Shown here: piece after piece, positions 433 to 62,558 of the stretch
Layout: every line of letters starts with the position of its first letter
Numbering within the stretch: position 1 is the first letter of the stretch
DNA from: an uncultured bacterium
Lineage (GTDB): Bacteria; Krumholzibacteriota; Krumholzibacteriia; LZORAL124-64-63
Reading direction: 5' to 3'
Length of the DNA: 64,000 bases
NCBI GenBank assembly: GCA_963732385.1
Contig: CAVSZB010000006.1
Location: forward strand, 1-64,000
The notes under the pieces: model-generated
The model's database searches: none
What the model saw: only the letters and a program-made list of their open reading frames with translations
Told to the model about the DNA's origin: nothing
Program-made: the position numbers and the translations under genes

Positions 433-1143
433 TCATCGGTAGGTGCTTTTCACCGCGCCCCACGAAGTCTCCGCAGACGACACGGCGCAATCCTGCACTT
501 CGAAGGACGTCACATACGCCATCCAGCACCCTTCGACCCCGCCGTACACATAGGAGAGGTACCCAATCAAGCGCACAGGCTGTCCCGTGTCAGCGTAGGC
601 GTCCAGCTCGGGGGGCCACGATTCGATTACCACGTGAATTCCGCAGGAGCCAGGACAGGGGATCCCGGGCAACATCAGGCCGCCCCCATGGAACACCGCC
701 GTGTGGGCATAGACGCTGGTGCCCGAGCTGGCGAGAACCCTGTCCGTGCAGGAAATGTAATAGTATTGGTAGCTGGTGCAATCATACAACGTGCAGGGAT
801 CGAGAGGCTGGCGCTGGGCGTCCACGAAGAAGACTCGGTACTCGTAGAACAAGTCCGGCACTGCGGTCGCGTCCACCAGAGTGAAGCGCGCCTGCCCCGA
901 CTCGGGCCGAGCGAGCATTTCGGCGTTCAGCCTCACCTCCGAACCGCACTCCATCAGGGTGCGCCGCTGCACATCAAAGCCAGCCAGCACGGCCGGCGCA
1001 TCCGCGACATCGACCGTGAACGCGACCAGCCGTGCGCCGAACGGCCCCACGACGGCTTCCATGGAGATGGGTTCAGTAGCCTGCACTGGATTCACGCAAA
1101 GTGCGGTCACAACGCCCGCAGCGCAGAACCACCTCAATATCAT
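433..1143 (-). CDS. Secreted hypothetical protein with C-terminal SWGAVKSTYR motif
   Basis: 236-aa ORF with GGAGG RBS, signal peptide-like N-terminus (…LCVNPVQA), Cys-rich body and C-terminus TSWGAVKSTYR resembling two other proteins in the window. Confidence 0.8.
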   Translation of the reverse strand: MILRWFCAAGVVTALCVNPVQATEPISMEAVVGPFGARLVAFTVDVADAPAVLAGFDVQRRTLMECGSEVRLNAEMLARPESGQARFTLVDATAVPDLFYEYRVFFVDAQRQPLDPCTLYDCTSYQYYYISCTDRVLASSGTSVYAHTAVFHGGGLMLPGIPCPGSCGIHVVIESWPPELDAYADTGQPVRLIGYLSYVYGGVEGCWMAYVTSFEVQDCAVSSAETSWGAVKSTYR

Positions 1144-1183
1144 CGCGGCACCTCCACAGTAAGCGGCAAGCCAGGCAGCCCGG

Positions 1184-1349
1184 CGATTGTACTCCCCCCC
1201 CCCCGAATCGACCAGCGCGGGGGGGATATGTCCCGGGAGTTTCCTCCTACTGGGCTCGGGTCGCCGGGGCTCGCCGCAGGCGCGGGATTCGGGGTCCCGT
1301 AGCGAAGTCAGCCTCGGCCCGCAATCCCCCGCTCCGATTCGACTAGCGC
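1184..1349. repeat. Intergenic repeat element, copy A
   Basis: Aligns by eye with 1683-1910; core CCCCGAATCGACCAGCGC near the left end and variant CTCCGATTCGACTAGCGC at the right end. Confidence 0.8.
1186..1214 (-). promoter_or_regulatory. Putative sigma70-type promoter with poly-C(11) tract in the spacer
   Basis: Minus-strand TACAAT at 1191-1186, about 43 nt upstream of the ATG at 1143; TAAAAT at the equivalent position in copy B; -35 weak (TGGTCG). Confidence 0.45.
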
Positions 1350-1350
1350 A

Positions 1351-1626
1351 TCAACCGAACCGTCGGGCCAGAAGGGCAAGAATCGCCAGGACCAGGGCGA
1401 GGTTCATGGCTGTGACGAATTGCCAATACAGATGTCCCGGGCGTCCCTGCTCCTCTGTAGTCAGTTTCTTGTAGCTGCTAACCCAGCGGATCATCTGAAT
1501 CCTCATCAGGAACCAATTGACTGCGATCCCGCGTCGTTGCAGCTCCTGGCCCATGCGACCAGCTGTGATCGCACCGCACACAGCGCAGGCACCGGCCAGT
1601 ACGCCGAGAATCAGAGCCGGGGTCAT
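1351..1626 (-). CDS. Small membrane protein with two hydrophobic segments
   Basis: MTPALILGVLAG… ATG at 1626 preceded by GAAAGAG; hydrophobic N- and C-terminal helices. Confidence 0.7.
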   Translation of the reverse strand: MTPALILGVLAGACAVCGAITAGRMGQELQRRGIAVNWFLMRIQMIRWVSSYKKLTTEEQGRPGHLYWQFVTAMNLALVLAILALLARRFG

Positions 1627-1682
1627 CGTGTGCTCTTTCATTCGGAGACCATAGCCCAGTGGTCGGCCGCTTCGGCCCCGAC

Positions 1683-1910
1683 CGATTTTACTCCCCCCGC
1701 CCCGAATCGACCAGCGCGGGGGGGATCTGTCCCGGGATGTTCCGCCTACCGGACTCGGGCGGCCGGTGCTCCCGCCGCATTTGACCGACCCCAAACCGCC
1801 AGGGGTATCGACCCCTACCTAAACTCCCCGCGGCCCGCGGTCGACGCCGGAAGCAAGGTCCCGTAGGAGGTCGGCGTCTGCCCGAAACCCCCGCCCCGAA
1901 TCGACAGGCT
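1683..1910. repeat. Intergenic repeat element, copy B (about 60-70 bp extra in the middle)
   Basis: 1683-1779 matches 1184-1278; 1857-1905 matches 1293-1343. Confidence 0.8.
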
Positions 1911-2116
1911 CGGTCGCTGGCCGCACAACCGACGGTGGATCGCCACCCTGTGGTCGCCGGTGGAATTGAAGATCCGGCCATCACCGACGTGGCGCTGTGG
2001 TATGATTGCCCTCTCGCCCGGTATCGGCTGCAGCGTATTGGCCTTCCCGCGCCCGGAGGTTCCGGTCGGCTCAGACGCACCACCGCCAGAAGCGCGAAGG
2101 GACTGGAGGAACCGAC

Positions 2117-3463
2117 ATGAGGATCATCCACGTGGCGACGGTCGCCGTTCTGCTGGCCAGCCTGGCCCATTCAGGCGAGGCCCGGGCCGAGCAGTTCCCG
2201 GGCAACGGCCAGATTGGATTTGGCGGTCCGATCGGGAACACTGTCCTGACGATCACGAGAAACGCCGACCAGCTTCTCTTTCGCCTGGATCGCGGTCTCG
2301 CCGTTCCCTTGTCGGAAGTACTCGTGCTCTACTTCGACTCGCGCGACGGAGGCTATCCGGGCACCCAGGATATTGATGATCAGGCGGACGAATCCCGAAG
2401 GGCGATCTCGGGGGACGGTTCTCTTGGCGCATGTGACCTGACCTTCGGTTTCGACGCCGACTTCGCCGTCGCTTTCAGCGCTGACACGGGGGGACTGCTT
2501 TACGAGCTTCAGACCGGCGAGGACCATACACTGATCTTCCGGGCTGTTCTGGGTGGGGCAGCGTCTCTGCCTGACGACCTGGTTTTCGAATTCGCGACGG
2601 ACTGCGCGGACCTTGAACTTGTCCCGGGGGCGGGGTTCGCGTTCGCCGGCACGTACCTCAGCGTCTCGACCGTGTATCGTTCAAACGAGGGCTTTGGCGA
2701 GGGCCTGCCGACGCTGAATCCCGGGACGCCCAGTTCTGTCGCTTTCACGGGCCATTTCGTGATGGCGCCAGCCACCATCGGCTGGTGCAACCTGCAATGG
2801 CCGCCAACGCTGGTCGCGACGGCGGGCGTGGCGAGCGATCTGGTCTACGGGCAGGTGTGGATCGACGATGTGACGAATCTTTCCGGCGCGACGGCAGGGC
2901 TGGACGCTGAATTGGGCTTCGGTCCCGACGGCAGCAATCCGGCGGTGGACCCTTCCCCCTGGCAGTGGGTCCCCGCCGTGTTCCATCTCGACGTCGGCGA
3001 GAACGACGAGGTCTTAGCGCGGCTCACCGTGCCCGCTGCCGGTGTCTACGACTACGCCTATCGCTTTTCGTTCCTGTCGGGACCGTGGCTCTACGGCGAC
3101 CTCAACGGCACCGAGGACGGCTACTCGCCGGCAGAGGCGGGAAGTCTTGTGGCCACGGCGCCGACCGGCGTGCCTGGCGCGCCAGCCGCCCTTCGCCTCC
3201 ACCCCAACCAGCCCAACCCATTCAACCCAAGAACCACCATCCGCTTCGACCTCCCGGTAGCGGGTCAGGCTATACTCTCGATCTACGACCTCGCCGGCCG
3301 CCTCGTTCGGGTCCTCGTCGAGGGGGAACGGGCTGCGGGAGCCTACGAGGCGGTTTGGGACGGAAGGGATGCCACCGGCCGCTCCGCCCCCTCCGGCAGC
3401 TACCTGGCCCGGCTGGTCGCGGGGGGGAAGGTGGAGGTTGTGAGAATGGGGTTGGTGCGCTGA
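2117..3463 (+). CDS. Secreted protein with C-terminal FlgD-Ig/T9SS-like sorting domain
   Basis: GGAGG RBS then ATG 2117; signal peptide (…GEARA); IGWCNLQWP module; tail PNPFNPRTTIRFDLP…WDGRD…SGSYLARL. Confidence 0.85.
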   Translation: MRIIHVATVAVLLASLAHSGEARAEQFPGNGQIGFGGPIGNTVLTITRNADQLLFRLDRGLAVPLSEVLVLYFDSRDGGYPGTQDIDDQADESRRAISGDGSLGACDLTFGFDADFAVAFSADTGGLLYELQTGEDHTLIFRAVLGGAASLPDDLVFEFATDCADLELVPGAGFAFAGTYLSVSTVYRSNEGFGEGLPTLNPGTPSSVAFTGHFVMAPATIGWCNLQWPPTLVATAGVASDLVYGQVWIDDVTNLSGATAGLDAELGFGPDGSNPAVDPSPWQWVPAVFHLDVGENDEVLARLTVPAAGVYDYAYRFSFLSGPWLYGDLNGTEDGYSPAEAGSLVATAPTGVPGAPAALRLHPNQPNPFNPRTTIRFDLPVAGQAILSIYDLAGRLVRVLVEGERAAGAYEAVWDGRDATGRSAPSGSYLARLVAGGKVEVVRMGLVR

Positions 3464-3481
3464 GGGCGCGGAGGAACGAGT

Positions 3482-4490
3482 ATGCGCGCGAGAGCCGCGA
3501 TCATCTCCTGTCTGGTCTGGGCGCTCGTGTTCTGCCCGGCAAGCCAGAGTCTGGCGACCGTCGTCTGCCCCTCTGGCGAGACGCAACAGGGTGTCGATGT
3601 GTCCTGGTGGCAAGGGACCGTGAACTGGGGCCAAGTCGCGGCCTCGGGCGTGACCTTCGCCTTCGCGCGCGTCTCGGATGGTCTGACCGCCGATGGTCGC
3701 TTCGCCAGCAACTACGCGGGGATCAAAACGGCGGGGATGATACGGGGGGCGTACCAGTTCTTTCGGCCCGGGCAGGATGCGCTTGCACAGTCGGATCTCT
3801 TTCTGTCGAGCATCGGCACCATCGGGCCCGGCGACCTTCCGCCGGCCCTCGATGTCGAGATCACAGATGGCATGAGCGCTGTCGCTGTCGGCCAGGCCGT
3901 CGAAACATGGGCGACGGCCATTCAGCAGGCGACGGGGCGCACCCCGCTCATCTTCACCAGCCGCAACTTCTGGGATGACCACGTCATCAGTCCCGACTCT
4001 GCACTCAATCCGCTTTGGATTGCGGCATGGGGCGTTGCTTGTCCCGACACTCCCTCCATTTGGGACAACTGGGTTTTCTGGCAATACAGCGGCGACGGAT
4101 CGGTACCTGGAATCGTCGGCCTGGTCAGCCTGGATGTGTTCAATGGTCCCTTGAGTGAACTTCAGGAACTGGCGGGCATGGCTCCGGTCGGCGTCCCCGG
4201 CGCGCAGGCGACAGTGCCCCGGCTCTACCCCAACCACCCCAACCCCTTCAACCCAAGAACCACCATCCGCTTCGACCTCCCGGCTGCCGGTCAGGTCCGC
4301 CTCGTCGTCTACGACCTCGCCGGTCGACTCGTCCGGGTCCTCGTAGAGGGGGAAGTCTCCGCGGGGAGCCATGAGGCGGTTTGGGATGGGAGGGACGCGA
4401 CGGGCCGGGCACGCACCCTCGGGCACCTACCTGGCCCGGCTGGTCGCGGGGGGGAAGGTGGAGGGGGTGAGGTTGAGTCTTGTGAGGTGA
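3482..4490 (+). CDS. GH25 lysozyme (muramidase) with FlgD-Ig-like C-terminal domain; +1 frameshift near 4412
   Basis: GVDVSWWQG, RGAYQFF, PPALDVE and FWQYS GH25 motifs; removing one base at ~4412 restores APSGTYLARLVAGGKVEGVRLSLVR* (TGA 4488-4490), matching the upstream paralogous tail; as written the ORF runs to 4501. Confidence 0.85.
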
Positions 4491-4574
4491 GCGGGGCGTG
4501 AGGTTTCTCGGGGTGCCGCGGTTTTGGACCGACCGCTGCCGCACTATTGGACCAGCGTTCGCAGGTGCCGGGTT

Positions 4575-4880
4575 TCAGTCCCAGAACGTGGTTGCCGTGC
4601 CCTTCGTCATCGCCTGACTGCACTTCGGACAAGGCCTGCCCTTCTTCCAGGCCGCGACATGCCGTCCCTCACAGCTCGGGCACTTTCCCATATCCTTGTC
4701 GTACTCGGGATCGCCGGTTGGGCCGTCTTTTCCCTCCCGTCCGATCAACACATCCACAAGATCTTGGCAATCTTTGCAGACCATCGTCCGAACGACGGCA
4801 AAGAAGCCAACATCCCTGCCACCCGACACTTCAGCCGAGTAACCGCAATTCGCACAGGTGAACTTGTACCAGGCGCCCAC
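4575..4880 (-). CDS. Small zinc-ribbon-type protein (four CxxC pairs)
   Basis: GTG 4880 after GAGAGGGG; CANC, CKDC, CPSC, CPKC; ends FWD. Confidence 0.75.
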   Translation of the reverse strand: MGAWYKFTCANCGYSAEVSGGRDVGFFAVVRTMVCKDCQDLVDVLIGREGKDGPTGDPEYDKDMGKCPSCEGRHVAAWKKGRPCPKCSQAMTKGTATTFWD

Positions 4881-4970
4881 GTGGTCACCCCTCTCGTCAT
4901 TAAGCTCGGCGCAATCGGTCTGGCCCGGCCCTGCTCCTCGCCCGCCCGCTCGCATGGGGGAGGAGGGAGG

Positions 4971-5480
4971 CTATACAGGTGGCGCTTCGCCACGGGCGGT
5001 TTCTGGCAAGTGCTCTACCTGACCGACTCCGCGCATCCCATGCACCGTCTTCTCGAACCGGTAGTGCTGAAGTGCCGGCATATTCTTCTTCGAGACGTTC
5101 ACGCCGTACTCTGGATAGCTCTTGAGGCCTTCGTAGTCATGGTCGACGAGGAGAGGGCTGGTCTTGAGCCATGCGGTGGCAGGGATCAGGTAGAGGTCAG
5201 GCTCCTTCTTCTCGGTGAGCAGAACCAACGCCAGGTAGAGGTCCTCCCGCAGTGCGAACCTGTCCTTCAGCAGGAACGCATAGCCGCTATCCCGCAGAGA
5301 CTTGACCTGCACCGCGATGAAGGGGCCGTTCTCGTACCGTGCCACGAAATCGATACCGCGGTCGTCGACCTCGGTTCCGTACACCTGGAAGCCGTGCATC
5401 GTCAACTCGATCTTAACGAAATACTCGGCATAGGCACCGACCTGCTGCGTGTTCAGCGCGCTCCAGATGTACTTGGACAT
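4971..5480 (-). CDS. PD-(D/E)XK-type nuclease (DUF4365-like)
   Basis: GAYAEY…EVDDRGIDF…IAVQVKS pattern typical of restriction-endonuclease-fold proteins; ATG 5480 after AGGAAA. Confidence 0.75.
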   Translation of the reverse strand: MSKYIWSALNTQQVGAYAEYFVKIELTMHGFQVYGTEVDDRGIDFVARYENGPFIAVQVKSLRDSGYAFLLKDRFALREDLYLALVLLTEKKEPDLYLIPATAWLKTSPLLVDHDYEGLKSYPEYGVNVSKKNMPALQHYRFEKTVHGMRGVGQVEHLPETARGEAPPV

Positions 5481-5497
5481 TGGCTTTCCTATCGCGG

Positions 5498-5623
5498 CTA
5501 ACGACCGCTCTTGGTCTCCAGATACTTTTTCCTCAGCGCATCCACCGGCACGAGCTTCCCGGCCTGGTCCCGGTAGCGACAGAATTCCCACTCATTGCCG
5601 GCCTGGGGCTTCGCGCCGACGGC
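5498..5623 (-). pseudogene. 3' remnant of a RAMA-domain-like gene truncated by the IS
   Basis: AGNEWEFCRYRDQAGKLVPVDALRKKYL* resembles the NGWxFW…GxLxxIDxLR end of RAMA domains; the similarity stops at the IS boundary. Confidence 0.5.
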
Positions 5624-6933
5624 TGTCCCTACCAAAAACCTCCACGCACCTCGATCTGCAAGCCGGCACCGCCGGATCGTGATTCTCGATCGCATGACAG
5701 GCCCGGTCAAGAGCTTCGATACGCCGACTTGTCAGGCGGCGCGCGCCCTTCGTGCGCCGCCCTCCCGGCTGCCGGGCAGACCCATCCCCCGCGGTGGCTG
5801 GCGCCCATTGCTTCTGCGTCAGGCCGCTTTGCGGAAGTAGCGATGGTGCAGGCCGCGCACCATCGGTTCTGATCGTACTGCACCGCGTTCCGGGGGCTCG
5901 ATCTCGCGGGGGATCGGCGCGTCCTTGTCCAGGCCAAGGTGCGTCCGGACCTCGTGGTAGTACTTGAAGTAATCCCTCAGCACGCGGCGCAGGTGGAGTT
6001 CGTTTAGGATGATCATGTGGTCCAGGCAGTCGTGCTTGATGGTGCCGACCATGCGCTCGCAGTAGCCGTTCTGCCAGGGCGAGCGGCGGGAGATCACCTT
6101 CTGCGTGCTGCCGATCTGCTTGATCGTCGCCGTCACGATGGCGCCGTAGATGCTGTCGCGGTCGCGGATGATGAAGCGGGGGGCGGTGTCGAAGGGGAAG
6201 GCCTGGATCAGTTGCAGGCTGGTCCAGTAGGCGGAGGGGGCGTCGGTCACGTTGAAGTGGATGAGCTTTCTGCGGTCGAGCGACAGGAAGATCAGCACGT
6301 ACAGCGTTCCGAACGTCACGGTCGGGATGGTGAGGAAGTCGATCGCGACGATGTCGGGCAGGTGGTTGCGGATGAAGGTCTGCCAGTTCTGGGAGGGCGG
6401 CTTCCCGCGCTTGATCATGTACTTCGCCACGGTCGCTTCGCTCACGTTGATGCCGAGCATCAGCAGTTCGCCGTGGATGCGGGGGGCGCCCCAGAGCGGA
6501 TTGTCGTGGGACATCCTGCGGATCAGGTCGATGGTCGCGATCGGGATGCCGGGGCGCCCGCCCTTGCCGGCTCGGGATTTCCAGCGCCAGTAGAGGCGCC
6601 AGCCCTTCCGGTGCCAGGCGATCACGGTGGACGGCTTGACGAGGCGCAGCGGTCGGCGCCAGTGGCGCCAGCAGCGGGAGAGCGCGACCCAGAACACCTT
6701 GTCGGCGGTGCGGAGCCGCGGGCGGGCGCCGGAGCGCTCGAGCACGAGGATCTGCTGGCGCAGGGCGAGGTTCTCGATGATCAGGTCGTGCCGCGGGCGG
6801 ACCAGGTCGCGCAGGGTGGCCAGGATGAGGGAAATCATCCGGGGGCTATCGGCAGGTGACGCGAGCGATGTAGCGCCGGCAAGTGACCGCAGCCACCGCG
6901 GGGACAATGCGAACGGAGTTTCTGGTAGGGACA
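5624..6933 (-). mobile_element. Insertion sequence with TGT…ACA ends (rve/DDE, IS481-like)
   Basis: Terminal inverted repeats TGTCCCTACCAAAAAC (5624-5639) and GTTTCTGGTAGGGACA (6918-6933), one mismatch; no target-site duplication. Confidence 0.85.
5819..6838 (-). CDS. Integrase-core (DDE) transposase
   Basis: NPLWGAPRIHGEL helix-turn-helix; catalytic AIDF, IRDRD and SPWQNGYCER motifs. Confidence 0.92.
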   Translation of the reverse strand: MISLILATLRDLVRPRHDLIIENLALRQQILVLERSGARPRLRTADKVFWVALSRCWRHWRRPLRLVKPSTVIAWHRKGWRLYWRWKSRAGKGGRPGIPIATIDLIRRMSHDNPLWGAPRIHGELLMLGINVSEATVAKYMIKRGKPPSQNWQTFIRNHLPDIVAIDFLTIPTVTFGTLYVLIFLSLDRRKLIHFNVTDAPSAYWTSLQLIQAFPFDTAPRFIIRDRDSIYGAIVTATIKQIGSTQKVISRRSPWQNGYCERMVGTIKHDCLDHMIILNELHLRRVLRDYFKYYHEVRTHLGLDKDAPIPREIEPPERGAVRSEPMVRGLHHRYFRKAA

Positions 6934-6950
6934 GCCTGCACAGGCAGGTT

Positions 6951-9900
6951 TCAGGGATTCATGACGGAGGGCCGCAGCCACGACATGAATCTGGCAATGG
7001 TGTCGGCCTTGGATTTTTGAATTGGGGGGCGCAGATACGAAGCATGCAATATTTGGTAAAAGGCGTACTTAACATCCGGCGCCATTACGGGATTATCGCG
7101 AAATATCCTTGTCGCTGTGCTCTCGAGGGTCGCATCATCACCAAGTTTGAGATACGCCATGCACAGGAATATGCCCGCCGATACGGGATTCCCCGTGCTC
7201 AGCAACTCCTCGTTGCCATGTTTCCGGTACCCATCGATCGCACGTTCCAGGATTGGTACGGCGTCAGCCGGCATTCCCCTGGCAACGAGAAGCTTGCCCA
7301 ACTCGAAGGCGGCGGTGGGTGAATCGGGCGCCGCCTCAAAGGCTGCAGCCGTAAATGCTTCCGCCGCAGACCGGTCCCCGCCATAGGACGCCCACTGCGC
7401 CTTCAGTACGGACGCCAAAGCCGTAGCGAAACCGGTGAATAGTGCCCGGTTGGGCAGGCGATGACCAAGCAGCTGTTTGTGGCGTGCGGGCCCCATCGCA
7501 TCCACGCGGTCAGTCAGAAATGAGAGTATGGCCGCCCTTGTCAGCATCGCAAAAAGATGAACTCTCAGAGAATGCCCCGTTATCACGGGGCCCTGGTTGC
7601 GCCCGCCTTCGCTCGTTCGCATTTCTTCGTACAATTCCCTGGCTGCATGGCCCAGCGCGGCTGGCAGCCTGCCGTAGCGGAGCACTCCGTTCACGAGTTG
7701 GGAGAGTTCGTCCCCTGCCTCGACTTCAGACAACGTCCACAAGTCGTTGGCGATACGCCTCCGTTCCGTTTCCGGCATCTGCCACGGCACTGAACAGTAG
7801 TGACAGGCCGAAGAAGCTTCGTCGATCCTTTCCGGACGCGCCTGGGGAAAGTCCACGAAAAGCCGGAGCAGATAGCCGCTAAGGGACTCGAGCGAGGACG
7901 GTCTGCTGGCGAGCCGCAGGGCCCGGACGTCGAAGGTGACCACTGGCGCGGTAAAGAATTCCAGGGTCGGGCTTGAGAATTTTGTGGCCATGTCATCGGT
8001 CGTGCCGAACGACTGATCGGCCTCGCGCACGCCGCCCAGAAGGAACGGCGAATCGTCGGTCAGGGGCTGGTCCGCGTGCGCCAGCAGCGCGCCGGAGGAT
8101 GGCCGGGAGCAGGTGGTCGCCAGCATCAGGCGGTTCGTCGCGACCAATGGCAATACGCGCTCGATGGCCTGGCCCGCGCCCTCGCCGTCAACGCGAACAA
8201 ACGTGGTGCGCAATCCGGCGGACGTGGCAAGCTGCGCCGCCATCTCGTTTCCGGGGACGATGAACTCGACACCATCAGGAACATGCTTTGCCGCCTCGGC
8301 GTAGCAGGCCATCACGTCGGGAAGATCCGGGGCATTGCCGGAGGCGATCAGGGCCACCGTCAGCCGGCTGGGGCTGCGGGTATAGCTGCGTTTGGCGGCC
8401 ACGCCGAGGGGCTTGGCCAGGCTGTCGGCAAATACTATCGAGGAATTCCGGAAAGACCGGTCCCGCAGGAAAGCATCGCTGTCGCTGGGCGCGCTGGCTG
8501 AAGTGCCGGTGCGATGCTTGTCGAATGCCCGCAAATTGATGGCCGCGCAGCGCGCGTCGAGCTCCTGGGGCCGCCATTGGCCGCCGTCAGTCCACATGGC
8601 ATGAGCGCGGAGGCGAAAGGCAGACCATGGCTCACCCTTGATCAGCTTTGAAACCTCAGGCATCAGCGCGGAGACTGCGGGCATTTCATCAAGAGCGTCG
8701 AACAGCGCCCGCACGCCAAACGCGTGGGGCAGGATCCCGGAACTGATGAACAAAAGGCTGTCCGCAACGCTGACGTGCATGGCTTCCTGCAGTGCGTCAC
8801 GTGGCTGAGCGCCGCTGCTGAGCAGGTATCGGATGTAGTGCTCCTCGCACCACGGAACGAGCAGATTTGCGTGGCGCGGCGGAATGACGAGGAAATATGC
8901 CGTGTGCGGGGGCATGCACCTGAGGAAAGTCCCGAGCCGTTCGGCCAGGTGCTCGGTGTCCTGGGCAAAAAGGGCCAGTTCGCGCAGGCCGCTGATTCGA
9001 GCGGGGAAAGCCCACGGTTCGCGCCGAAGATCGAAGTGATCCTGGCGCATGGGTCTGCGCACCGAAGGCAGCCCGGCGATGATGTCATGCCACTGCCTGC
9101 GCGTCGCCTCGAAGCCCCATTGCCGGTCAGAGTGTTGTCGACCGTTCAGTGATAGCTGCTGCCAAAGCGTCGCATCGTCGAGCAGGCGGATGATGGCCTC
9201 AGCGAATTCCGGCGCTGTGTCGGCAATGAGGGCGTGCCGACCGTTCAAGAGATCCATGCCCTCGGCGCCGATGGTCGTGGTGACAACCGGGAGACCGTAG
9301 GCCAGCGCTTCGCCAACTTTGCCCTTCATGCCTGCCCCGTAGCGAAGCGGCGCCACGGAGATCAGGGCTGCGTCGAGGTAGGGCCTGGTATGGGGCACCC
9401 ATCCCGTGACGGACACGCGGTCACAGGCCAGGGAGTAGACCTCGTCATTCGGCGCCGAACCGGCGAGGGTCACGTGGATGGCGGGATGCTGCGCCCAGAC
9501 GAGCGGCATGACCTCGCGTACCAGCCAGACCACGGCATCGACGTTGGGCCGATGGCTGTAGCCTCCGAAGAAGAGGAGCCCCGTCCTGCCGGTTCTGACC
9601 GGACTGGCGTCTTCGGCTGGGTGGACGTTAGTGAGCACGCCGACGTTCGCGTCCGGGACGTGAGCCAATAGGGCGGCTTTGTCCTGATCGGTCACCGCAA
9701 CGGCGGTGTCCGCGTTGCGATAGGTGGCAATCTCGAGGCGGCGGAAACGGTCGAAACCCGAGGCGACCGCAAGGTCCCCCTTGAGCTCGATCTCCCGCCA
9801 TTCACGCAAGAAGACGATGTCCACCGAATCGACGATGAAGGGCAGATCCGGTCGGATCTTCCGGACGATGGGCAGGTAGACCGAGCCCACGTCGGGAAAG

Positions 9901-11270: not shown

Positions 11271-13103
<1,833 letters not shown>

Positions 13104-44827: not shown

Positions 44828-44837
44828 GGAGAGGGAC

Positions 44838-53813: not shown

Positions 53814-53841
53814 CTCCTCTGCCCCGAATAGACCAGCGCGG
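53814..53841. repeat. Isolated core of the 1184/1683 repeat family
   Basis: CTCCTCTGCCCCGAATAGACCAGCGCGG vs CTCCCCCCGCCCCGAATCGACCAGCGCGG. Confidence 0.65.
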
Positions 53842-54026
53842 TGGTTCGCCTTTGAGCGGCGGTCGCCCTGAGCACGCGGCTCAGACCCTATGGAGTGACC
53901 GGCCCCCCTGTCGTACCGTCGTCACCGTCGTTCTGGTGGTTGGCGATGGCGACCGGGTGGCAAGCACCGCAGTCGCGGGTTAGCGCCTTTCGGCGCCAGA
54001 GCCGCATACGACGAAGGGAGCCGGCC

Positions 54027-55091
54027 ATGGCCAGTATAACCTACGTGGGGCTGGATGTGCACAAGCGGACGATCGCGGTGGCGCTGCGCCGCCCGGGGAC
54101 CGACGAAGTGGTCGAGTGGCAGGTCGCCCACGAGCCGACGGCCGTGCGGCGACTGATCCGCAAGCTCAAGGCGCACGCCCCGGTGGCCTGCGCCTACGAG
54201 GCGGCCGAGATCCCCTGCCTGGTCGCCGCCCCGTCCCTGATCCCGGTCCGCTGCGGCGACCGCATCAAGACCGATCACCGCGACGCCCGCAAGCTGGCCC
54301 AGTTGTTCCAGGCCGGGCTCCTGACGGCGGTGCACCCGCCGACAGAAGACGAGGAGGCGGTCCGCGACCTGTGCCGCTGCCGCGAGGACGCGCAACTGGA
54401 TCTGGTGCGGGCCCGGCACCGGTTGGGCAAGTTCCTGCTGCGCCGCAGCTTGAGCTTCCATGACGGCTACCTCTGGTCCCAGCGTCATCGCACTTGGATG
54501 CACGGCTTGACGTTCGCGCGGGCCGCCGACCAGGTCGTCTTCGAGGACTACCTGCTGGCGGTCGAGCAGCAGGAGGCCCGAGTCGCCGCGCTGGACGAGC
54601 AGTTGGCCGCCGTCGCGGATCAGGAGCCGTTCCGTGCGCCGGTGGTGGCCCACCTGCGCTGCTTCCGCGGCATCGACACGGTCACCGCCGTAAGCCTGGT
54701 CGCGGAGCTGCACGATGTGCGGCGCTTCGCGTCGGCTCCCGCCCTCATGGCCTATCTCGGGCTGGTCCCCAGCGAGCACAGCAGCGGCGAGCATCGTCGG
54801 TGCGGCGGCATCACCAAGACCGGCAATCGCCACGTGCGGCGCCTGCTGATCGAGACCGCCTGGCACTACCGGCACAAGCCTACGGTGGGGGTGAAACTGG
54901 TCAAGCGCCGGCACGGCCAGCCGCCCGTGGTCATCGCCCGCGCCGACCGGGCGCAGCAGCGCCTGTGCAGGCAATACCGGTGCATGGTCGCCAAAGGCAA
55001 GCATCACAACACGATCGTCGTGGCCATCGCCCGCATGCTGGTTGGATATCTGTGGGAGACGCTGCGCACTGCGCAGCCTGTCGAAGCCTGA
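54027..55091 (+). CDS. IS110 DEDD transposase/recombinase, probably damaged by an in-frame deletion
   Basis: YVGLDVHK, YEA, KTDHRDA, GLVPSEHSSG, ITKTGN; the segment normally following YEA looks missing. Confidence 0.9.
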   Translation: MASITYVGLDVHKRTIAVALRRPGTDEVVEWQVAHEPTAVRRLIRKLKAHAPVACAYEAAEIPCLVAAPSLIPVRCGDRIKTDHRDARKLAQLFQAGLLTAVHPPTEDEEAVRDLCRCREDAQLDLVRARHRLGKFLLRRSLSFHDGYLWSQRHRTWMHGLTFARAADQVVFEDYLLAVEQQEARVAALDEQLAAVADQEPFRAPVVAHLRCFRGIDTVTAVSLVAELHDVRRFASAPALMAYLGLVPSEHSSGEHRRCGGITKTGNRHVRRLLIETAWHYRHKPTVGVKLVKRRHGQPPVVIARADRAQQRLCRQYRCMVAKGKHHNTIVVAIARMLVGYLWETLRTAQPVEA

Positions 55092-55109
55092 ACAAACGGA
55101 ACGGTCCGA

Positions 55110-55320
55110 CGGTCGGAGACGGCGGATGAACGCAGGCACGATCCGGAGAATCCGCGTTATCGGTGTGCGACTGGGCCATTGGGTCCAGACTCACGATCTC
55201 AGAGTGCGGTCCCTCCCGACGGAGCACGGTCATGCGGCTCGGCGCCGGCTTGCCGGCGCAACCCGCGTATATCAGAGTGACTCGTCGTCGAAGCGACCTG
55301 CCTCGTCCGCCGCCTCCGGA
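55110..55320 (+). ncRNA. Putative bridge RNA (seekRNA) of the IS1111-type element
   Basis: Two hairpin-centred loops; flanks TATCGGTG (55158-65) and CTCAG (55198-202) match the target, GGTC (55228-31) and ATATCAGA (55269-76) match the circle junction; boundaries approximate. Confidence 0.7.
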
Positions 55321-55396
55321 TGTCGGAACCGGGAAAAGACAAGAGAACGGCCGCCTCCCCGCAGGAAAGCGGCCCTTGACACAGGGTCACTCCATA

Positions 55397-56071
55397 TCAG
55401 CGATAGAGGGACTTAACCGCGCTCCAGCTGACCGCTTCGACGGGCACCAGCGTGCCGTTGACAGTGAAAACCGGCGAGTTCGGGCCGGCGGGCAGCGGTC
55501 GCAGGCCGAGCACTCCGTAACAGGGGCTGTCGACGAACAGGCTGTCGAAGTAGTAATACAATGTCGGCAGCCCGTCGTCCGTCCCGCCGTTGGCTCCGAC
55601 ACCCATGCCGATCGCAGCGGGAGCATTGTCCAGCGCCATGAGGCCAACGCGCATCAGGCAGCGGTCGATCAGGCAGGTGGTGGATGACGGCCAGAGCATG
55701 TTGTTATAGGAGTAGCGCGCATCGATGTCAGGATTCGTGTTCGGGAAAAATACGCCGCACAGTCCGCCCAGTGATGTATCGAAGTTGATGATCCAGAGAT
55801 TAGCGGGAATCTCGATATGGCACAGCAGCTGCATCTGGTAGTACATAAGAAACATCGGATGTCCGACCGCCGCGGGCAGGTCCGAGACCGGGCGATCAAG
55901 GAGCAGATACAGCCAGAACGGCTCATAGGGCGCGATTGTGAGCCGACTTGCGTTTCCGTCCTCGTCTGCGTAGAGCCCGACGGAGATTTCGCTCACTTGC
56001 GCCAGGCCCAAAGCCGCGGCGCCCGCGACCGCAACGGCCAACATTGCCGCACAAAGCCACCTGAACTTCAT
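55397..56071 (-). CDS. Secreted hypothetical protein with C-terminal SWSAVKSLYR motif
   Basis: GGAGG RBS, signal peptide MKFRWLCAAML…, SVGLYADEDG; stop codon coincides with the IS right junction. Confidence 0.82.
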   Translation of the reverse strand: MKFRWLCAAMLAVAVAGAAALGLAQVSEISVGLYADEDGNASRLTIAPYEPFWLYLLLDRPVSDLPAAVGHPMFLMYYQMQLLCHIEIPANLWIINFDTSLGGLCGVFFPNTNPDIDARYSYNNMLWPSSTTCLIDRCLMRVGLMALDNAPAAIGMGVGANGGTDDGLPTLYYYFDSLFVDSPCYGVLGLRPLPAGPNSPVFTVNGTLVPVEAVSWSAVKSLYR

Positions 56072-56348
56072 GGCGCCTCCCGCCGCAATCGTCGCCCCAC
56101 TTGCAGACCGAAGCGTCACCCTGAGTGTAGGGGGTTGGTTCTGACGCGGCAAGTACTCGGCCGCGCCCCGGCGGGTTCATGCCGCAGTCGGCCGGTATCA
56201 TGATGCTGCACAGCGACTTCAGGACTCCCGAGGCCTTTTTCTTGTCCCTGATGCTCGGGCTCGGTAAGCTGCGGCGGCCCCGGACGACGCACGAATTCTC
56301 GTGAGGAGCCGGAAAGGAATCCGTTCCCCCTTGCAGGAGGATTCGCTC

Positions 56349-57494
56349 ATGCGCCCGATCTCTTCGCCTCGCCCTCGCCGGGCCGCGCAAACCCTGGTCC
56401 CTGCCCTGGTCCTGACGTTGGTTGTTTCGGTCACGCCCTTTCCTGTGTACGCGACGGAGCCGGTGGAGACGAAGATCTGGGGCCGCAGCTCGCTGTTGAT
56501 CGCCTACGACACGGCGGACCTGCGCGCCGGGCTCGATTTCGGCAGTTACGTGACCGCGGACGGTCAGGATCGCGTCAATTTCAATCCGCGCGACACCCGC
56601 CTGGGTCTGTCGGCCACCCAGACCAAAGGGGCCTGGACCTACAGGAGCGTCTTCGAGATGGACTTCTACGGCGACAACGCCGGCAACAATCTGCTGCCGC
56701 GCCTGCGTCTCGGATTCGTGGATGTCTCCCACAGCGGCGGTTTCGCCCTGCGCGCCGGACAGGACTGGATCCCGATCGCCCAGCAGAACCCCGGCACGCT
56801 CGACTTCGGGGTGCTGGCCTGGGGCGGCAATCTCTGGTGGCGCGTGCCGCAGGTGACCGTGCGCCAGAAGACCGGCGATCTGGAGTTCCTCGCCGGGATG
56901 ATGAAGCACCGCAACTCGAGCACCCAGGAGGCCGAGGAGCAGATGCCGTGGTTCCTGGGCCGGCTGGCGTGGACCGGCCTGAGCGACGGCAAGGGCCTGC
57001 TGGCGATCGGCGTCGGCGGCCGCAGCAACTCCCTGACGGATACGGTCGATGACGCACCGTTCAACACCGACTACAAAGCCTGGCTCGTGTGCGGTGAATG
57101 GAAGCTGCCCCTCGGCCCGCGCCTCACGCTCAACGGCGAGGCCTGGACCGGCAAGGGGCTCGGCCGGGAATTCGTCCGCTACGATCTGGACTACAACCGG
57201 CAGGTCCGCCGTTCGATCAATGCGCAAGGCGGCTTCGTCAGTGCGGCCGTGGATCTCGGCCGCGGTCTGCAGGCCAACCTCGGTGGCGGCATCGACGATC
57301 CCGAGGACGACGACCTGGCCGGCGCCACCACCGTCATCTTCACGCAGAACACCGTACTGTTCGGGAATCTTAAGTGGCAGGCCACGGAGCACTTCGGAGC
57401 CGGCTTCGAGGTCATGAACTTCACGACCGAGACCGGTCCTGATGACGAGCTCGACGGCCAGCGCTTCACCATGGGGACCTGGTTCGTGTTCTGA
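56349..57494 (+). CDS. Outer membrane porin (DcaP-like)
   Basis: Signal peptide, RDTRLG, FEMDFYG, PRLRLGF, AGQDW, RVPQ, terminal WFVF. Confidence 0.8.
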   Translation: MRPISSPRPRRAAQTLVPALVLTLVVSVTPFPVYATEPVETKIWGRSSLLIAYDTADLRAGLDFGSYVTADGQDRVNFNPRDTRLGLSATQTKGAWTYRSVFEMDFYGDNAGNNLLPRLRLGFVDVSHSGGFALRAGQDWIPIAQQNPGTLDFGVLAWGGNLWWRVPQVTVRQKTGDLEFLAGMMKHRNSSTQEAEEQMPWFLGRLAWTGLSDGKGLLAIGVGGRSNSLTDTVDDAPFNTDYKAWLVCGEWKLPLGPRLTLNGEAWTGKGLGREFVRYDLDYNRQVRRSINAQGGFVSAAVDLGRGLQANLGGGIDDPEDDDLAGATTVIFTQNTVLFGNLKWQATEHFGAGFEVMNFTTETGPDDELDGQRFTMGTWFVF

Positions 57495-57561
57495 GCGCGG
57501 AAACGGACGGGGCGCGCGGACCAGACGCCGGCGCCCCGGATCTTCCGCCGTGGAGGCAGCG

Positions 57562-57906
57562 GTGATCGGTCCGTTCTCGGCGGAGCGCCGCCTGCGGCGG
57601 GAATTGACGACCGTGCAGGCGATGATCGGCCTGTATTGCCGCGCGCACCATGGCGGCGGGACCGGGCCGTGCGCGGAGTGCCACGAACTGCTGCGGTATG
57701 CCGGGCAGCGCATCGAGCGCTGCCCGTTCGGCGTCGGCAAGCCGACCTGCGTCGACTGCCCGGTGCACTGCTACGTGCCCGCGATGCGGGAGCGGATCCG
57801 CGTGGTCATGCGCTACGCCGGGCCGCGCATGGTGTGGCGCCATCCGATCCTCGCGCTGTTCCATATCCTCGACGGCCGCCGGTCGGCGCCGTCGCTCAAA
57901 CGCTGA
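57562..57906 (+). CDS. YgbA-family protein
   Basis: MIGLYCRAHH, CAEC, CPF…KPTCVDCPVHCY, MRYAGPRM…HP. Confidence 0.88.
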   Translation: MIGPFSAERRLRRELTTVQAMIGLYCRAHHGGGTGPCAECHELLRYAGQRIERCPFGVGKPTCVDCPVHCYVPAMRERIRVVMRYAGPRMVWRHPILALFHILDGRRSAPSLKR

Positions 57907-57951
57907 TCGTGAGCCGGTCCGCATCGCTCCCGGTGGTCAGGTGCGGCTCCG

Positions 57952-60516
57952 CTACCACGGTCCGAGCCACGGCTCAGGCAGGCCGTCGGGCGGGGTGAGC
58001 AGCAGCGGGCGGCCCGGCTGCGCCGCGATCCCCTGGAGGTACAGATCGGCGGGGCCCGGCAGGGTCGCCGCGGCGGCTGCGTCGGCGGCGACCGCGTCGG
58101 GCGTGTCGTCGCCGCCCAGAACCCGCGCCAGCCAGGCCGCTCCGGTCGCCAGACCGGGCAGCGACGGCCCCAGCTTCGGCAACTCCACGAGGCGTCGCGC
58201 CGGGAATTCGCTCAGGACCACCTCGTCGCCGGGGCGGATGCCGGCCAGGTCGCGCGCCAGGGCGATGGCGTCGGAGAGGCCGCCCTGCGCGTCGCAGAGA
58301 CCGCGCGCGATGGCGTCGTCGCCCATCCAGACCCGGCCGCCGCCCAGCTCGCGCACCCGCGCTTCGGGCAGGCCGCGCGCGGTGGCCACCTTGCCGACGA
58401 ACTGGTCGTACATGCCGAGGATGTACCCCTTCACGAGGGCCAGCTCGCAGTCGTCGAGCGGACGGGTGGGGATCGACAGGCCGAGCAGCGGCGGGCGCAG
58501 GCCCGAGAACAGGTCGGCGTGGGCGCCGCGCTGCACGCCGTCGGCGCGCATGCCGAGCCTGTCGCCGAGGCCGTCGTCCCAGAACCAGCCCGAGATGACG
58601 CCGATCGAGCCGGTCACGGTGAGCGGGGTCGTCAGCAGACGACTGCCGCCCAGGCTGATCCAGTAGCCGCCCGAGGCCGCCACGTCGCCCTGGCTGATGA
58701 CGACCGGCTTGCCCGCCGCGACCAGCCTGGCCACCGCTTCGGCGATCAGGTCGCTCGGCTGCGGATCGCCGCCGGGCGAATCGGGGCGCAGCACGACCGC
58801 CTTCACGTTGCGGTCGTGCACGAGGCGGCGCAGGTGGGCCGAGGTGGCGCGGCCGCGGATGCCGGAATCCATGGCGCATTCGCCCACGGCGAACACCACG
58901 GCGACCTCGGCCGGGCGGCCCCAGCGCTCGTCGGGCAACTGCTCGGGCGGCGGAGAGGACGGCGTCGTCCAGCGCCCGTGCCGTTTTTGCTGCACCCACT
59001 CCTCGACATCGGCCCAGCGGCCGAGCTCGTCGGCAAGGCCGGCATCGCGCGCGGCGACGGCGTCGAGCAGCACGCGCGTGTCGACGAGGCTGTCGAAGGC
59101 GGCCGGCGCAAGGCGGCGCGAGGCGCAGGCCCCGTCGCGCAAGGTCTCGTAGGCGACATCGATCAGGCGCTGGCGCTGCTCGCGCTCGCATTCGCTCATC
59201 TCGTCGCGGGCGAACACCTCGACGGCGCTCTTGCACGGCATGAAGCGCAGTTCCTGGAATCCGACGCCGAGTTTGGTGAGCGTGCCGCGTACGTAGGTGC
59301 GGCGGGAGGCGAAGCCGGGCAGGGTGACGCTGCCCTGTGGATCGAGAATGAGACGGTCGCCGGCGGTGGCCAGCCAGGTGTCGAGCATGCCGAGGTTGTC
59401 GGCGTGGATGACGATCTCCTTGCCGGCGGCGCGCAGTTCGCCCAGCTTGCGGCGCAGCTCCCAGGCGAGCGACGGGCGTGGGCGCAGGCCGGCCAGGTTG
59501 AGCGCGACCCCGTCGATGTCGGGCGCGTCGCGCAGGCGGTCGAGGTGGCGCGCGAGGTCGAGCCAGGCCACGCGCGAGTCGTCGAACCAGCGATACTTCT
59601 GGTAGGTGAGGACCCGGTGTTCGAGGTTCACCGCGGCCCAGCGCGGGCGGCGGTCGGGGCGCAGGGCGGCCGGCACCGCCAGGCTGCGTTGAGGGGCGGC
59701 CGCGCGCACGAGGAATGCGGTGCCGGTGGCGTGGCCCCCGCGATCGTACGCGGGCAGGGCGTGGTATGCGGTGCCGCCGAGCGTCACGCCGGCCGTGAGC
59801 GTGAAGCGGAAGTCGTCGGTGTCGTCGGTTTCGCGCAGGCGGGCGCCCAGATGCAGGCCGGCCAGGGGACGGAATTCCACTCCGGCGCCCCAGCGGCCGG
59901 CGTCCGGATCCTCCCCGTGGCGCAGCGTGAAGTCGCCGAACAGCGTGAGCGCGGGGGTGCCGAACGGACGCACGCCCAGATCGGCCGTCGCCTGACGCGC
60001 CGCCGACTCCAGCGAGGCGACTCCGGCCAGGCCCCAGGAGACGGCGCGGCCCGGCCGGCCGATCAGACCCAGGGCGAGCGCCTGGTCGTGCCGTTGTCCG
60101 TCGTTGCCGCCGCTCGACCAGCGGTAGGCGAGGCCGGCGTGCGCGCGCCGGTCGCCGCGGGCGAGGCCGAACTGCCAGTCGGTGAGACGGGTCGTGCCGC
60201 CCGGCACCGGCAGAACGCGGCTGTCGAGCGCGAAACCGACGTTGCGTCCGAACGACAGGCCCCAGTTGTCGAGCCCGTTGTGGCCCAGATGGCGATCGTT
60301 CCACCAGAGAGCGAACTCGGCGCGACCGGCCGCGGCCCAGGCGGCCGGGTTGGCGAAGGCCGCCGGTGCGCCGGCCGTCACGCTGGGGCTCTGCGGAAGC
60401 CACTCCATGCCGTCGGCGTAGTCCATGAGCCGGTCTGCGGACTGGGCCGCGGCCGGACCACCGGCCAGGACGAGCGAAAGCGCGGCGAGCAGGGCGGCAA
60501 GGGGCGCGTGGCGCAT
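57952..60516 (-). CDS. sppA: SppA (S49) peptidase with N-terminal beta-barrel-like domain
   Basis: Signal peptide; ANPAA followed by beta strands; CKSAVE, DSPGG, AASGGYW, TGSIGV, GGRVWMG. Confidence 0.85.
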   Translation of the reverse strand: MRHAPLAALLAALSLVLAGGPAAAQSADRLMDYADGMEWLPQSPSVTAGAPAAFANPAAWAAAGRAEFALWWNDRHLGHNGLDNWGLSFGRNVGFALDSRVLPVPGGTTRLTDWQFGLARGDRRAHAGLAYRWSSGGNDGQRHDQALALGLIGRPGRAVSWGLAGVASLESAARQATADLGVRPFGTPALTLFGDFTLRHGEDPDAGRWGAGVEFRPLAGLHLGARLRETDDTDDFRFTLTAGVTLGGTAYHALPAYDRGGHATGTAFLVRAAAPQRSLAVPAALRPDRRPRWAAVNLEHRVLTYQKYRWFDDSRVAWLDLARHLDRLRDAPDIDGVALNLAGLRPRPSLAWELRRKLGELRAAGKEIVIHADNLGMLDTWLATAGDRLILDPQGSVTLPGFASRRTYVRGTLTKLGVGFQELRFMPCKSAVEVFARDEMSECEREQRQRLIDVAYETLRDGACASRRLAPAAFDSLVDTRVLLDAVAARDAGLADELGRWADVEEWVQQKRHGRWTTPSSPPPEQLPDERWGRPAEVAVVFAVGECAMDSGIRGRATSAHLRRLVHDRNVKAVVLRPDSPGGDPQPSDLIAEAVARLVAAGKPVVISQGDVAASGGYWISLGGSRLLTTPLTVTGSIGVISGWFWDDGLGDRLGMRADGVQRGAHADLFSGLRPPLLGLSIPTRPLDDCELALVKGYILGMYDQFVGKVATARGLPEARVRELGGGRVWMGDDAIARGLCDAQGGLSDAIALARDLAGIRPGDEVVLSEFPARRLVELPKLGPSLPGLATGAAWLARVLGGDDTPDAVAADAAAAATLPGPADLYLQGIAAQPGRPLLLTPPDGLPEPWLGPW

Positions 60517-60616
60517 GGATGACCTCCGGACACGGGGGATGCACGACGTCGCGATGTTACCGTATCATGGCGGGGTCGCCAACCGGCGCGTGGCGCTGTT
60601 CAGGCAGGAGGTCGGC

Positions 60617-61570
60617 ATGTCGGATTCCGCTCCCACGGCACTCGTCTGCGAGGAGGTGTACCTGTGCCACGATACCGGGGCCGGCCACCCCGAACGGCCC
60701 GCGCGCCTGCTGGCCATTCTGGAAGCGCTGGCGGCGGCCGGTCTCGACGAGTGCCTGGCCCATCTCGACGCTCGTCCCGCCACCGACGACGACCTGACCC
60801 TCGTGCACACGCCCGCCTACGTGGACCTGGTCACGCGGGAGTGCCAGACCTCCGAGCCGGTGCAACTCAGCACCGGCGACGCCACCATCGGTCCCGGCAG
60901 CGACCGCGTGGCGCGCCTGGCCGTCGGCGGGGTGCTGGCCGCCTGCGACGCGGTGCAGGCCGGCGGCGCCCGCAACGCTTTCTGCGCCGTGCGTCCCCCG
61001 GGTCACCACGCCTTGCCGGACGCCGGCATGGGTTTCTGCATCTTCAACCACGTGGCGATCGCGGCACGACACCTGCAGCGCCGTCGCGGCTTGGCGCGCG
61101 TACTGGTGGCCGACTTCGACTGCCACCACGGCAACGGCACCGAGGAGACATTTTACGCCGACCCCACGGTCTTCACCTTCAGTTGCCACGACCGCCACGC
61201 CTTTCCCCGGACCGGGCTGCCGGAGCGGCGCGGGATCGGCGCGGGTGAGGGGTTCAATCTGAACGTCGCCCTGCGCGCGGGGGCCACCGACGACGATCTG
61301 CTTGCGGCGCACGAGCAGATTCTGGTCCCCGCCGCGCGCGCGTTCGCCCCCGACTTCCTGCTCGTGGCCGCCGGCTTCGACGGCCACGTGAGCGATCCGC
61401 TCGGCAATCTGGCGCTGACCGAGCGCGGTTTTGCGGCAGTGGGGCGCCTGCTGCGTAAACTCGCCGAAGAACTGTGCGGCGGGCGGGCGGTGGCCGTGCT
61501 CGAAGGGGGCTACGATCGGCGCGCGCTCGGCGCGAGCGTGGTCGCCTTCCTGGAGGAGTGGAGCCGCTGA
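60617..61570 (+). CDS. Histone deacetylase-family amidohydrolase
   Basis: HPERPARL, RPPGHHA, GFCIFN, DFDCHHGNGT, AGFD, LEGGY. Confidence 0.95.
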   Translation: MSDSAPTALVCEEVYLCHDTGAGHPERPARLLAILEALAAAGLDECLAHLDARPATDDDLTLVHTPAYVDLVTRECQTSEPVQLSTGDATIGPGSDRVARLAVGGVLAACDAVQAGGARNAFCAVRPPGHHALPDAGMGFCIFNHVAIAARHLQRRRGLARVLVADFDCHHGNGTEETFYADPTVFTFSCHDRHAFPRTGLPERRGIGAGEGFNLNVALRAGATDDDLLAAHEQILVPAARAFAPDFLLVAAGFDGHVSDPLGNLALTERGFAAVGRLLRKLAEELCGGRAVAVLEGGYDRRALGASVVAFLEEWSR

Positions 61571-61625
61571 TGACAGGCGAGGGGCGCTCGGGCGGGCGCC
61601 CCCTTCCTGTCCGTGAACCGCGGCG

Positions 61626-62558
61626 TCAGCGGTACGTACGCTTGACCCCGCCCCACGAGGCGCCATCGATCGGTGTCGGATCGCTGTCGGTCACGACCCA
61701 GGCGCCGGGGTTCCAGGATGCGACGCCCGTCTGCGTGCCGAACGTCGTCATAATGCAGCGGTACGGCTCGATGTTGGCCTCGAGCAGCAGGCCGTCGGGA
61801 TCGGTGGACTGCGCGTAGTAGCCGATCCAGCGCGGCTGGCCAACGCCGACCGCGAACTGGGCCGCGCCGAGGATTTCGACCAGCGGCACGTCGCCCACGG
61901 AGAGGCGGCCCACCAGCGCCCGGACCTCGTCCGCCACGGCCCAGCGCCAGCCGGGGTGGGCGGTCAGCCAGATCGCGATCTCCGCGCGCGTCAGGCCGAC
62001 GAACTGCGCGGGGTCGGACCAGTAGAGCCCCGTGGCCTGGTCCAGGAAGTACTGCCCCGCGCTGCCCGCGTTCTGCAGGCGCGGCTGCGTCGTCGGATCG
62101 CCGGCGTTGACGAACCAGCCGCCCGGATTCCACGTCGCCACGCCGCTCTGAGAGCCGGGATCGACGAGCACGGCGTTGTCCTCGGACTGGATGAGCCACC
62201 CGTCGGGGACGAGGCCGGCGTAGTAGCCGATCCAGCGCGGCCAGTCGGAGCCGACGGTCCACTGCCGGGGACCCATGACGTCTTCGAGGCTCGAACCGGA
62301 CGGGGCCGTGCTGCCGGCGAGGGCGTCGATCTGCGCGCTCGAGGCCCAGGTCCAGCCCGTGGAGTTGTTGACGATGAAGACGTCGAGCTGATCGCGCTCC
62401 GCTTCGGTCAGAATGTCCGGATCGCACCACGTCAGGCCCGAGGCGGGATCGTAGAAGAATTCGCCGTGGGCGCCGCGATCGGCGAGCTCGGCGGCGCCGC
62501 CGACGGCGGCGCCCGCCAGCAGGATCGCAGCGGCGATCGTCAGGGCACGCAGCAACAT
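61626..62558 (-). CDS. Secreted protein with two tandem domains and C-terminal SWGGVKRTYR motif
   Basis: AAGGAG RBS, signal peptide, duplicated DxxxGLxWxDP…GWxWA…PRWIGYYA…WNPG. Confidence 0.85.
   Translation of the reverse strand: MLLRALTIAAAILLAGAAVGGAAELADRGAHGEFFYDPASGLTWCDPDILTEAERDQLDVFIVNNSTGWTWASSAQIDALAGSTAPSGSSLEDVMGPRQWTVGSDWPRWIGYYAGLVPDGWLIQSEDNAVLVDPGSQSGVATWNPGGWFVNAGDPTTQPRLQNAGSAGQYFLDQATGLYWSDPAQFVGLTRAEIAIWLTAHPGWRWAVADEVRALVGRLSVGDVPLVEILGAAQFAVGVGQPRWIGYYAQSTDPDGLLLEANIEPYRCIMTTFGTQTGVASWNPGAWVVTDSDPTPIDGASWGGVKRTYR

Follow-up and report, generated by a model that had tools for sequence, protein, structure and literature searches.

A short C-terminal tag on exported proteins of Krumholzibacteriota, a candidate address label of motor-less type IX secretion systems

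Introduction

Do three exported proteins with dissimilar bodies and a common ending share a sorting signal? The question is raised by a window of 64,000 nucleotides (the whole stretch analysed here: contig CAVSZB010000006.1, positions 1 to 64,000, assembly GCA_963732385.1) from an uncultured bacterium of the phylum Krumholzibacteriota. Its minus-strand open reading frames (ORFs) at 433..1143, 55397..56071 and 61626..62558 encode proteins of 236, 224 and 310 aa that close on variants of the motif SW(G/S)xVKxxYR. LPxTG, GlyGly-CTERM and IPTL-CTERM signals have a C-terminal transmembrane helix plus a basic cluster, type IX secretion system (T9SS) signals are considered to be folded β-domains, and T9SS export is held to need the GldLM/PorLM motor. 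A first-pass annotation had proposed the shared ending as a tag of about 16 residues on unrelated secreted proteins, and the analysis supports a portable tag of this kind. The tag is real, widespread and uncatalogued, and it is probably an undescribed address label of the T9SS. Our preferred reading, to which we assign a probability of roughly 0.55, is that the tail is an export or docking signal, a portable envelope recognition peptide of T9SS-like systems with SprA, a PorU-like sortase and PorV-like barrels and without a GldLM motor, its putative reader being a conserved envelope protein.

Results

The three tagged proteins of the window

All three ORFs end exactly as the first-pass annotation had quoted them, and the N-terminus of each is hydrophobic and resembles a signal peptide. 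Genes and signal peptides were called with scripts of our own (for signal peptides a hydropathy heuristic) instead of Prodigal or SignalP. In pairwise BLAST the proteins match one another in the tail only (last 10–23 residues, best E 0.002–0.013), so that the bodies are indeed dissimilar. The tags occupy the last 16 codons plus the stop, at 433..483 (profile score 35.4 bits), 55397..55447 (41.3 bits) and 61626..61676, all on the minus strand.

No Pfam or NCBIfam family of note matches any of the three proteins. That at 433 has one relative only, 97% alike, and the nearest Atlas clusters of that at 55397 are hypothetical proteins of Krumholzibacteriota. The exported protein at 61626 consists of a domain of about 130 residues in two copies, a loose linker and the predicted tag helix (residues 302–309). 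Sequence and fold searches of the Protein Data Bank (PDB) with it returned nothing at E 0.001, leaving the ~130-residue domain without a PDB fold match. Among its 41 relatives, the tail is kept in all 38 that are full-length, and the K is invariant in the 37 aligned. Relatives of the window proteins are named Krumholzibacteria by their sources; relatives about 90% alike are present in two metatranscriptome assemblies, which has no bearing on expression.

The tag in the genome and the phylum

A regular expression for the motif was run over 55,644 six-frame ORFs of the assembly (3.82 Mb, 95.8% complete). It returned 23 matches, 21 of them within four residues of the stop, a zone that holds 4.1% of positions, and the terminal clustering is therefore not due to chance. 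One of the 21 is the end of a β-barrel and was discarded as a false positive. We built a 17-column profile on 114 tails taken from other genomes; as the search pattern had fixed four of its columns, these were filled in by hand. The profile scores 19 of the 2,998 called genes at 24.5–45.3 bits near the stop, the next best reaching 4.2, and adds two uncalled ORFs and one signal-peptide protein whose tail lies 21 residues before its end; internally, 3 of 1,041,223 positions exceed 12 bits. Altogether 21 ORFs of the genome carry a terminal tag, 20 of them distinct, the 433 gene being duplicated on contig C5. Signal peptides were called in 17 of the 18 true tag genes versus 724 of the 2,741 other genes; the eighteenth is frameshifted, with its signal peptide in the upstream frame.

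A proteome scan of this kind, with a test for signal-peptide enrichment, had been suggested in the first-pass annotation, which held that missing enrichment, full-length homology among the three proteins or an existing assignment of the motif would speak against a signal. What emerged is enrichment, a similarity limited to the tail, and a motif without assignment in the Pfam and NCBIfam models and undescribed in the literature searched (most subscription papers lay outside its coverage). A lipoprotein-like ORF on contig C1 (11924-12817) has a tag-like end with R replacing K and lies outside the profile's top terminal scores.

Across the phylum, the DNA pattern W[GSAT]x[VILM]Kxx[YF][RKHQNS]-stop is present in 150 of 151 genomes of Krumholzibacteriota. 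Its matches exceed 2,777 in total, compared with 21 when the pattern is reversed, and a single genome has as many as 76 strict ones.

Anatomy of the tail and its cargo

The consensus of the tail reads [VT][PA][TV]Exx[ST]W[GS]x[VI]KxL[YF]R-stop. In AlphaFold2 models of two unrelated tagged proteins, a loose linker leads into a predicted helix formed by the last 8–11 residues; confidence is moderate (pLDDT about 58–73). Tagged proteins are small, with a median of 234 aa in the genome and a range of 101–443 aa in 56 complete ORFs elsewhere, unlike the T9SS type-A-like cargo (median 738 aa, 68 called proteins). Those of the 64 tagged bodies that have a Pfam match resemble lamin-tail (LTD), DUF7450/7451, DUF4114, LamG, β-helix, SGL, ThuA-like or CBM_4_9 families, five of them over the cut-off, and a possible lipobox occurs in 3 of 56 tagged proteins.

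In the linker of the 61626 family, P294 is invariant and T295 is found in 34 of 37 relatives. According to the passages cited here from PMC11969387, T9SS cargo is preferentially cleaved at PT/GI. The tag linker may resemble this consensus, a likeness that composition alone could explain.

A single-copy carrier in other phyla

A GTDB-wide scan with the pattern returned at least 128 loci, three probable chance matches (L065, L075 and L102) having been excluded before counting. Among the loci listed, the titles are mostly Krumholzibacteria, Eisenbacteria, Latescibacteria and unnamed metagenome-assembled genomes (MAGs), and the Ignavibacteria group is also represented. Eleven of the listed loci belong to one family of about 130 residues, composed of a signal peptide, one FN3-like domain and then the tail, hereafter the carrier. 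Its loci include the cultured Rosettibacter primus and records titled Melioribacter and Kapaibacterium. The first-pass annotation had mentioned similar ends in uncultured MAGs related to the Fibrobacteres–Chlorobi–Bacteroidetes (FCB) group. The tail is not confined to uncultured genomes: cultured R. primus carries it on a conserved single-copy protein.

In 56 carrier sequences the mean frequency of the majority residue is 0.92 in the tail versus 0.50 in the body, and strong purifying selection on the tail is evident at the level of sequence. PDB searches with the carrier by sequence and by fold gave generic FN3 matches. In a library search with its profile, 127 of 150 matches are long multi-FN3 proteins, none with the tail, and all 23 short matches carry it. 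A profile comparison of the carrier with the 433 body was not significant (probability 5%). The neighbours of the carrier gene are housekeeping, MATE, Maf, SpoIID and patatin-Omp85 genes, and in one phylum only, 6 of 10 loci have a DUF4159-DUF4175-patatin/Omp85 block upstream (DUF4159 was seen in 4). In the ortholog of genome G170 (L189:1438-1896), the tail keeps the W and the hydrophobic spacing and has lost the G and K; it is a natural variant for mapping a putative binding face.

The same bodies are also found with other C-terminal signals. A relative of the 61626 protein (P0043) has one copy of the domain that ends at the same residue, followed by a PEP-CTERM signal (18.1 bits, cut-off 16), and the FN3-like body of the carrier directly precedes a type-A-like domain in 13 distinct loci and likewise in Atlas structure matches. 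The tail occupies the position where relatives of the same bodies carry PEP-CTERM or a T9SS type A domain, which, on this positional evidence, makes it portable.

T9SS machinery and co-occurrence

The genome encodes SprA (452 bits, cut-off 200), a PorU-like C25 protein (416 bits, cut-off 420) adjoining a PorV-family gene, and a second PorU-like gene. Five PorV-family barrels exceed the cut-off and weak PorZ-like matches were seen, together with 87 FlgD-Ig matches and about 85 FlgD-Ig-type cargo proteins. Neither GldM nor GldN turned up in this 95.8% complete genome, with an uninformative control for GldN and no search for GldK and GldL. The genome evidence narrows the functional guess towards a T9SS-like system.

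On contig C7, the frameshifted tag gene at 868702-869500 (L020) lies on the same strand as, and directly upstream of, the second PorU-like C25 gene, and is the only tag gene seen beside T9SS machinery. Elsewhere on this contig (708384-719703, minus strand; L013:384-11703), an apparent operon encodes a TonB-dependent-receptor-like barrel, a PorZ-like protein with an atypical C-terminal domain (CTD), a PorV-family barrel, a GWxTD protein, ExbB, two ExbD-like proteins and TonB; its first four genes have matches in the same order in genome G310 (L202), which also has the carrier and only three PorV-family barrels. Given that GldM and GldN were not found, this operon could be an alternative energiser of the T9SS-like system. 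On contig C8, a 2,694-aa DUF11-repeat protein adjoins a PorV-family/TPR fusion (357009-367039, L017) and an LTD protein adjoins PorP-like and BamG-like barrels (110801-117947, L018), which we read as type-B-like cargo/shuttle pairs with atypical CTDs.

Co-occurrence was assessed in 201 genomes of the Bacteroidota, the phylum of genome G151. The carrier was found in 75 of them, nearly always once: in 75 of the 162 SprA-positive genomes and in none of the 39 SprA-negative ones. GldM exceeded its cut-off in 49 of the 201 genomes, one of which has the carrier, against 74 of the 113 genomes that are SprA-positive and GldM-negative. With GldM below its cut-off in 113 of the 162 SprA-positive genomes, SprA machineries lacking the canonical motor seem to be frequent outside a single clade. 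In a second phylum, that of G153, the carrier occurs exactly once in 70 of 71 genomes and SprA in all 71.

A PorV2-like barrel (NF052325) was considered as the reader and rejected because its distribution does not follow that of the tail: many tail-negative genomes have it, and 9 of the 75 tail-positive genomes gave no match at E 1e-30. Co-folding of PorV with the carrier of G151 (alignments of 50 and 56 rows) scored 0.21 against a mark of 0.32, in a run without controls.

Comparison with known C-terminal signals

The tag works like a C-terminal sorting signal and is a member of neither the T9SS type A CTDs nor the transmembrane CTERM families. With type A CTDs (TIGR04183 / PF18962; here FlgD_ig-like PF13860) it shares the position at the extreme C-terminus of Sec-exported proteins, the same preceding FN3-like domain, a basic final residue and a host with SprA, PorU-like and PorV-like genes; its linker may resemble PT/GI. 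It differs in being about 16 residues long and predicted to be helical, without motif B/D, whereas a type A CTD is a 3-7-stranded β-sheet of 43-100 residues with motifs B, D and E; cargo size also differs, as given above. No match to TIGR04183, PF18962 or PF13860 was found in the tails, in keeping with the first-pass view that they are not folded T9SS domains. A canonical T9SS moreover has a PorKLMN/GldKLMN ring and motor. Even the short CTDs of Prevotella intermedia span 43-55 residues in the cited part of PMC11969387.

As described in the cited portion of PMC12618676, type B CTDs and their PorP-SprF shuttles set a precedent for a further class of C-terminal signal with a dedicated barrel as its reader, and the five PorV-family barrels of this genome are a point in common. 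A type B signal, however, is a domain whose gene frequently neighbours that of its shuttle, whereas tag genes are scattered and adjoin no cognate barrel. PEP-CTERM/exosortase and related signals (TIGR02595, IPTL-CTERM PF18203, GlyGly-CTERM, LPxTG) are, like the tag, short portable tails on small non-enzymatic exported proteins, and on one body family the tag and PEP-CTERM are interchangeable. The tag has neither their transmembrane helix nor their basic cluster: 15-residue hydropathy peaks at 1.05 in the tails of 19 genes, as had been anticipated from the window alone.

Neighbouring features of the window

The tags coexist in the window with FlgD-Ig-type tails, as the first-pass annotation had noted. 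The exported protein at 2117..3463 (plus strand) has an intact FlgD-Ig, T9SS type-A-like C-terminal domain by Pfam/NCBIfam, and in the GH25 lysozyme-like protein at 3482..4501 (plus strand) this domain has a frameshift near 4400-4420. Further frameshifts elsewhere in the assembly point to errors in base counts. Window positions 2-1279 and 5623-6934 have copies on contig C5 (403260-404538 and 400618-401929) that are 98% and 94% identical; they include an identical copy of the 433 protein (C5:403398-404108) and represent either a recent duplication or an assembly repeat. An IS110-family transposase (54027-55091) lies just beyond the 3' end of the 55397 tag gene.

Discussion

Several observations weigh against tying the tail to T9SS-like systems. 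Neither this genome nor 101 genomes of its phylum yielded the carrier, whose link to the window tags therefore rests on motif identity. No T9SS gene occurs in the carrier neighbourhoods (9, 28 and 18 loci), where nothing is conserved across phyla. All 39 SprA-negative genomes fall within 1.8-3.1 Mb and come up at regular intervals in the sample, which makes a single clade probable; with probably about one independent loss, the co-occurrence counts overstate the case, and the GldM contrast is likewise one clade against the rest. A further 39 genomes, SprA-positive and GldM-negative, are without the tailed protein, and only G170 has an ortholog. A tag-linker profile scores the genome's 60 type-A linkers above other positions (p=3e-11) but no better than their own shuffles (p=0.075). 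A few pattern loci stand in records titled outside the FCB group (L060, L089, L127, L138, L154; titles taken as given). Finally, in the cited parts of PMC11285876 and PMC11969387, known CTDs need β-strands and a loop, which a helix cannot supply.

The strongest alternative, which we nonetheless consider unlikely, is a docking peptide independent of the T9SS, whose helix would bind a conserved periplasmic or surface scaffold, or itself, and whose match with SprA would reflect shared ancestry of the FCB envelope. Dockerins and SLH motifs are docking motifs of this sort. The co-occurrence, with about one loss event behind it, and the lack of T9SS neighbours of the carrier gene both speak for it, as do the small bodies, most of which belong to no family (52 of 64 lack a Pfam match). 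It also draws on the Chlorobiota, described in the cited section of PMC12611786 as lacking SprA and also BamG/BamH and SusCD, so that other envelope machines share the SprA profile. A docking peptide of this kind fits less well with two features: in two body families the tail stands in for a true sorting signal at the identical position, and in the carrier it is preceded by a cleavage-site-like linker, with [ST][SGAN][VIT] immediately before the tail in 47 of 56 proteins.

Anchoring in lipid or lipopolysaccharide, with the amphipathic cationic helix inserting into a membrane leaflet without any protein reader, seems improbable. A predicted helix with one hydrophobic face and basic residues, in a tail without a transmembrane segment, would suit such an anchor. 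Yet all 56 carriers, across phyla, have the same W, G, I, K and F, a constancy beyond what a lipid anchor needs; the mean hydrophobic moment is barely higher at the helical than at the strand angle (0.49 vs 0.46), and the residue four before the W is often acidic (42% E).

Very improbable, and largely refuted, is the view of the tail as a degenerate exosortase-type signal (PEP-CTERM or IPTL-CTERM-like) now devoid of its transmembrane helix. The VP-x-E start of the tag resembles such signals; P0043 shows a swap with PEP-CTERM in one relative, and a score of 0.83 for an Atlas cluster in which 40% of members are IPTL-CTERM proteins is no more than a lead. Against this, no exosortase (PF09721) exceeds the cut-off in the genome, where the best match reaches 19.8 bits (cut-off 25.7) and is a multi-pass protein that we read as a glycosyltransferase, and no PEP-CTERM or IPTL-type ends occur among the called genes. 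That there is no signal, the motif reflecting common protein ancestry or chance, is refuted by the terminal clustering, the reversed-pattern counts and the unrelated window bodies, even though three tag proteins of the genome are paralogous and one is an exact duplicate.

Under our preferred reading, that of an envelope recognition peptide of motor-less T9SS-like systems, a tagged protein would first leave the cytoplasm by Sec through its N-terminal signal peptide, a step for which there is sequence-level evidence. Its body would then fold, and the loose Pro/Thr/Val-rich linker is predicted to free the last ~10 residues, which would form an amphipathic helix displaying W, V/I, L and Y/F on one side, the fixed G and K lying next to these. 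The helix may be recognised by a conserved protein of the envelope that belongs to the SprA system and would either export the tagged protein or hold it on the machinery or the surface. As an optional and speculative last step, a C25 sortase would cut within the linker, as happens to type-A cargo. In several phyla one FN3-like protein of about 130 residues carries the tail; in Krumholzibacteriota, Eisenbacteria and their kin it sits on tens of small non-enzymatic exported proteins, beside larger type-A-like cargo.

A bolder and more doubtful extension can be put forward tentatively. The single-copy carrier might be an unrecognised core subunit of an ancestral motor-less T9SS across FCB phyla, possibly energised by TonB-ExbBD, with its tail docking on the translocon or a shuttle. 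Krumholzibacteriota and Eisenbacteria might then have adapted this docking peptide as a T9SS signal of a third class: a helix of 10 residues by which tens of small proteins, none needing a folded CTD, would reach the surface.

The carrier is present in cultured R. primus and in Melioribacter-titled records, and the question can thus be addressed by pull-down and localisation, unlike cases known from MAGs only. If true, a conserved helical peptide tied to motor-less SprA systems would add a new class to the sorting or docking signals of bacteria. The tag would then mark the surface proteome of several uncultured phyla and would offer a minimal tag for engineering.

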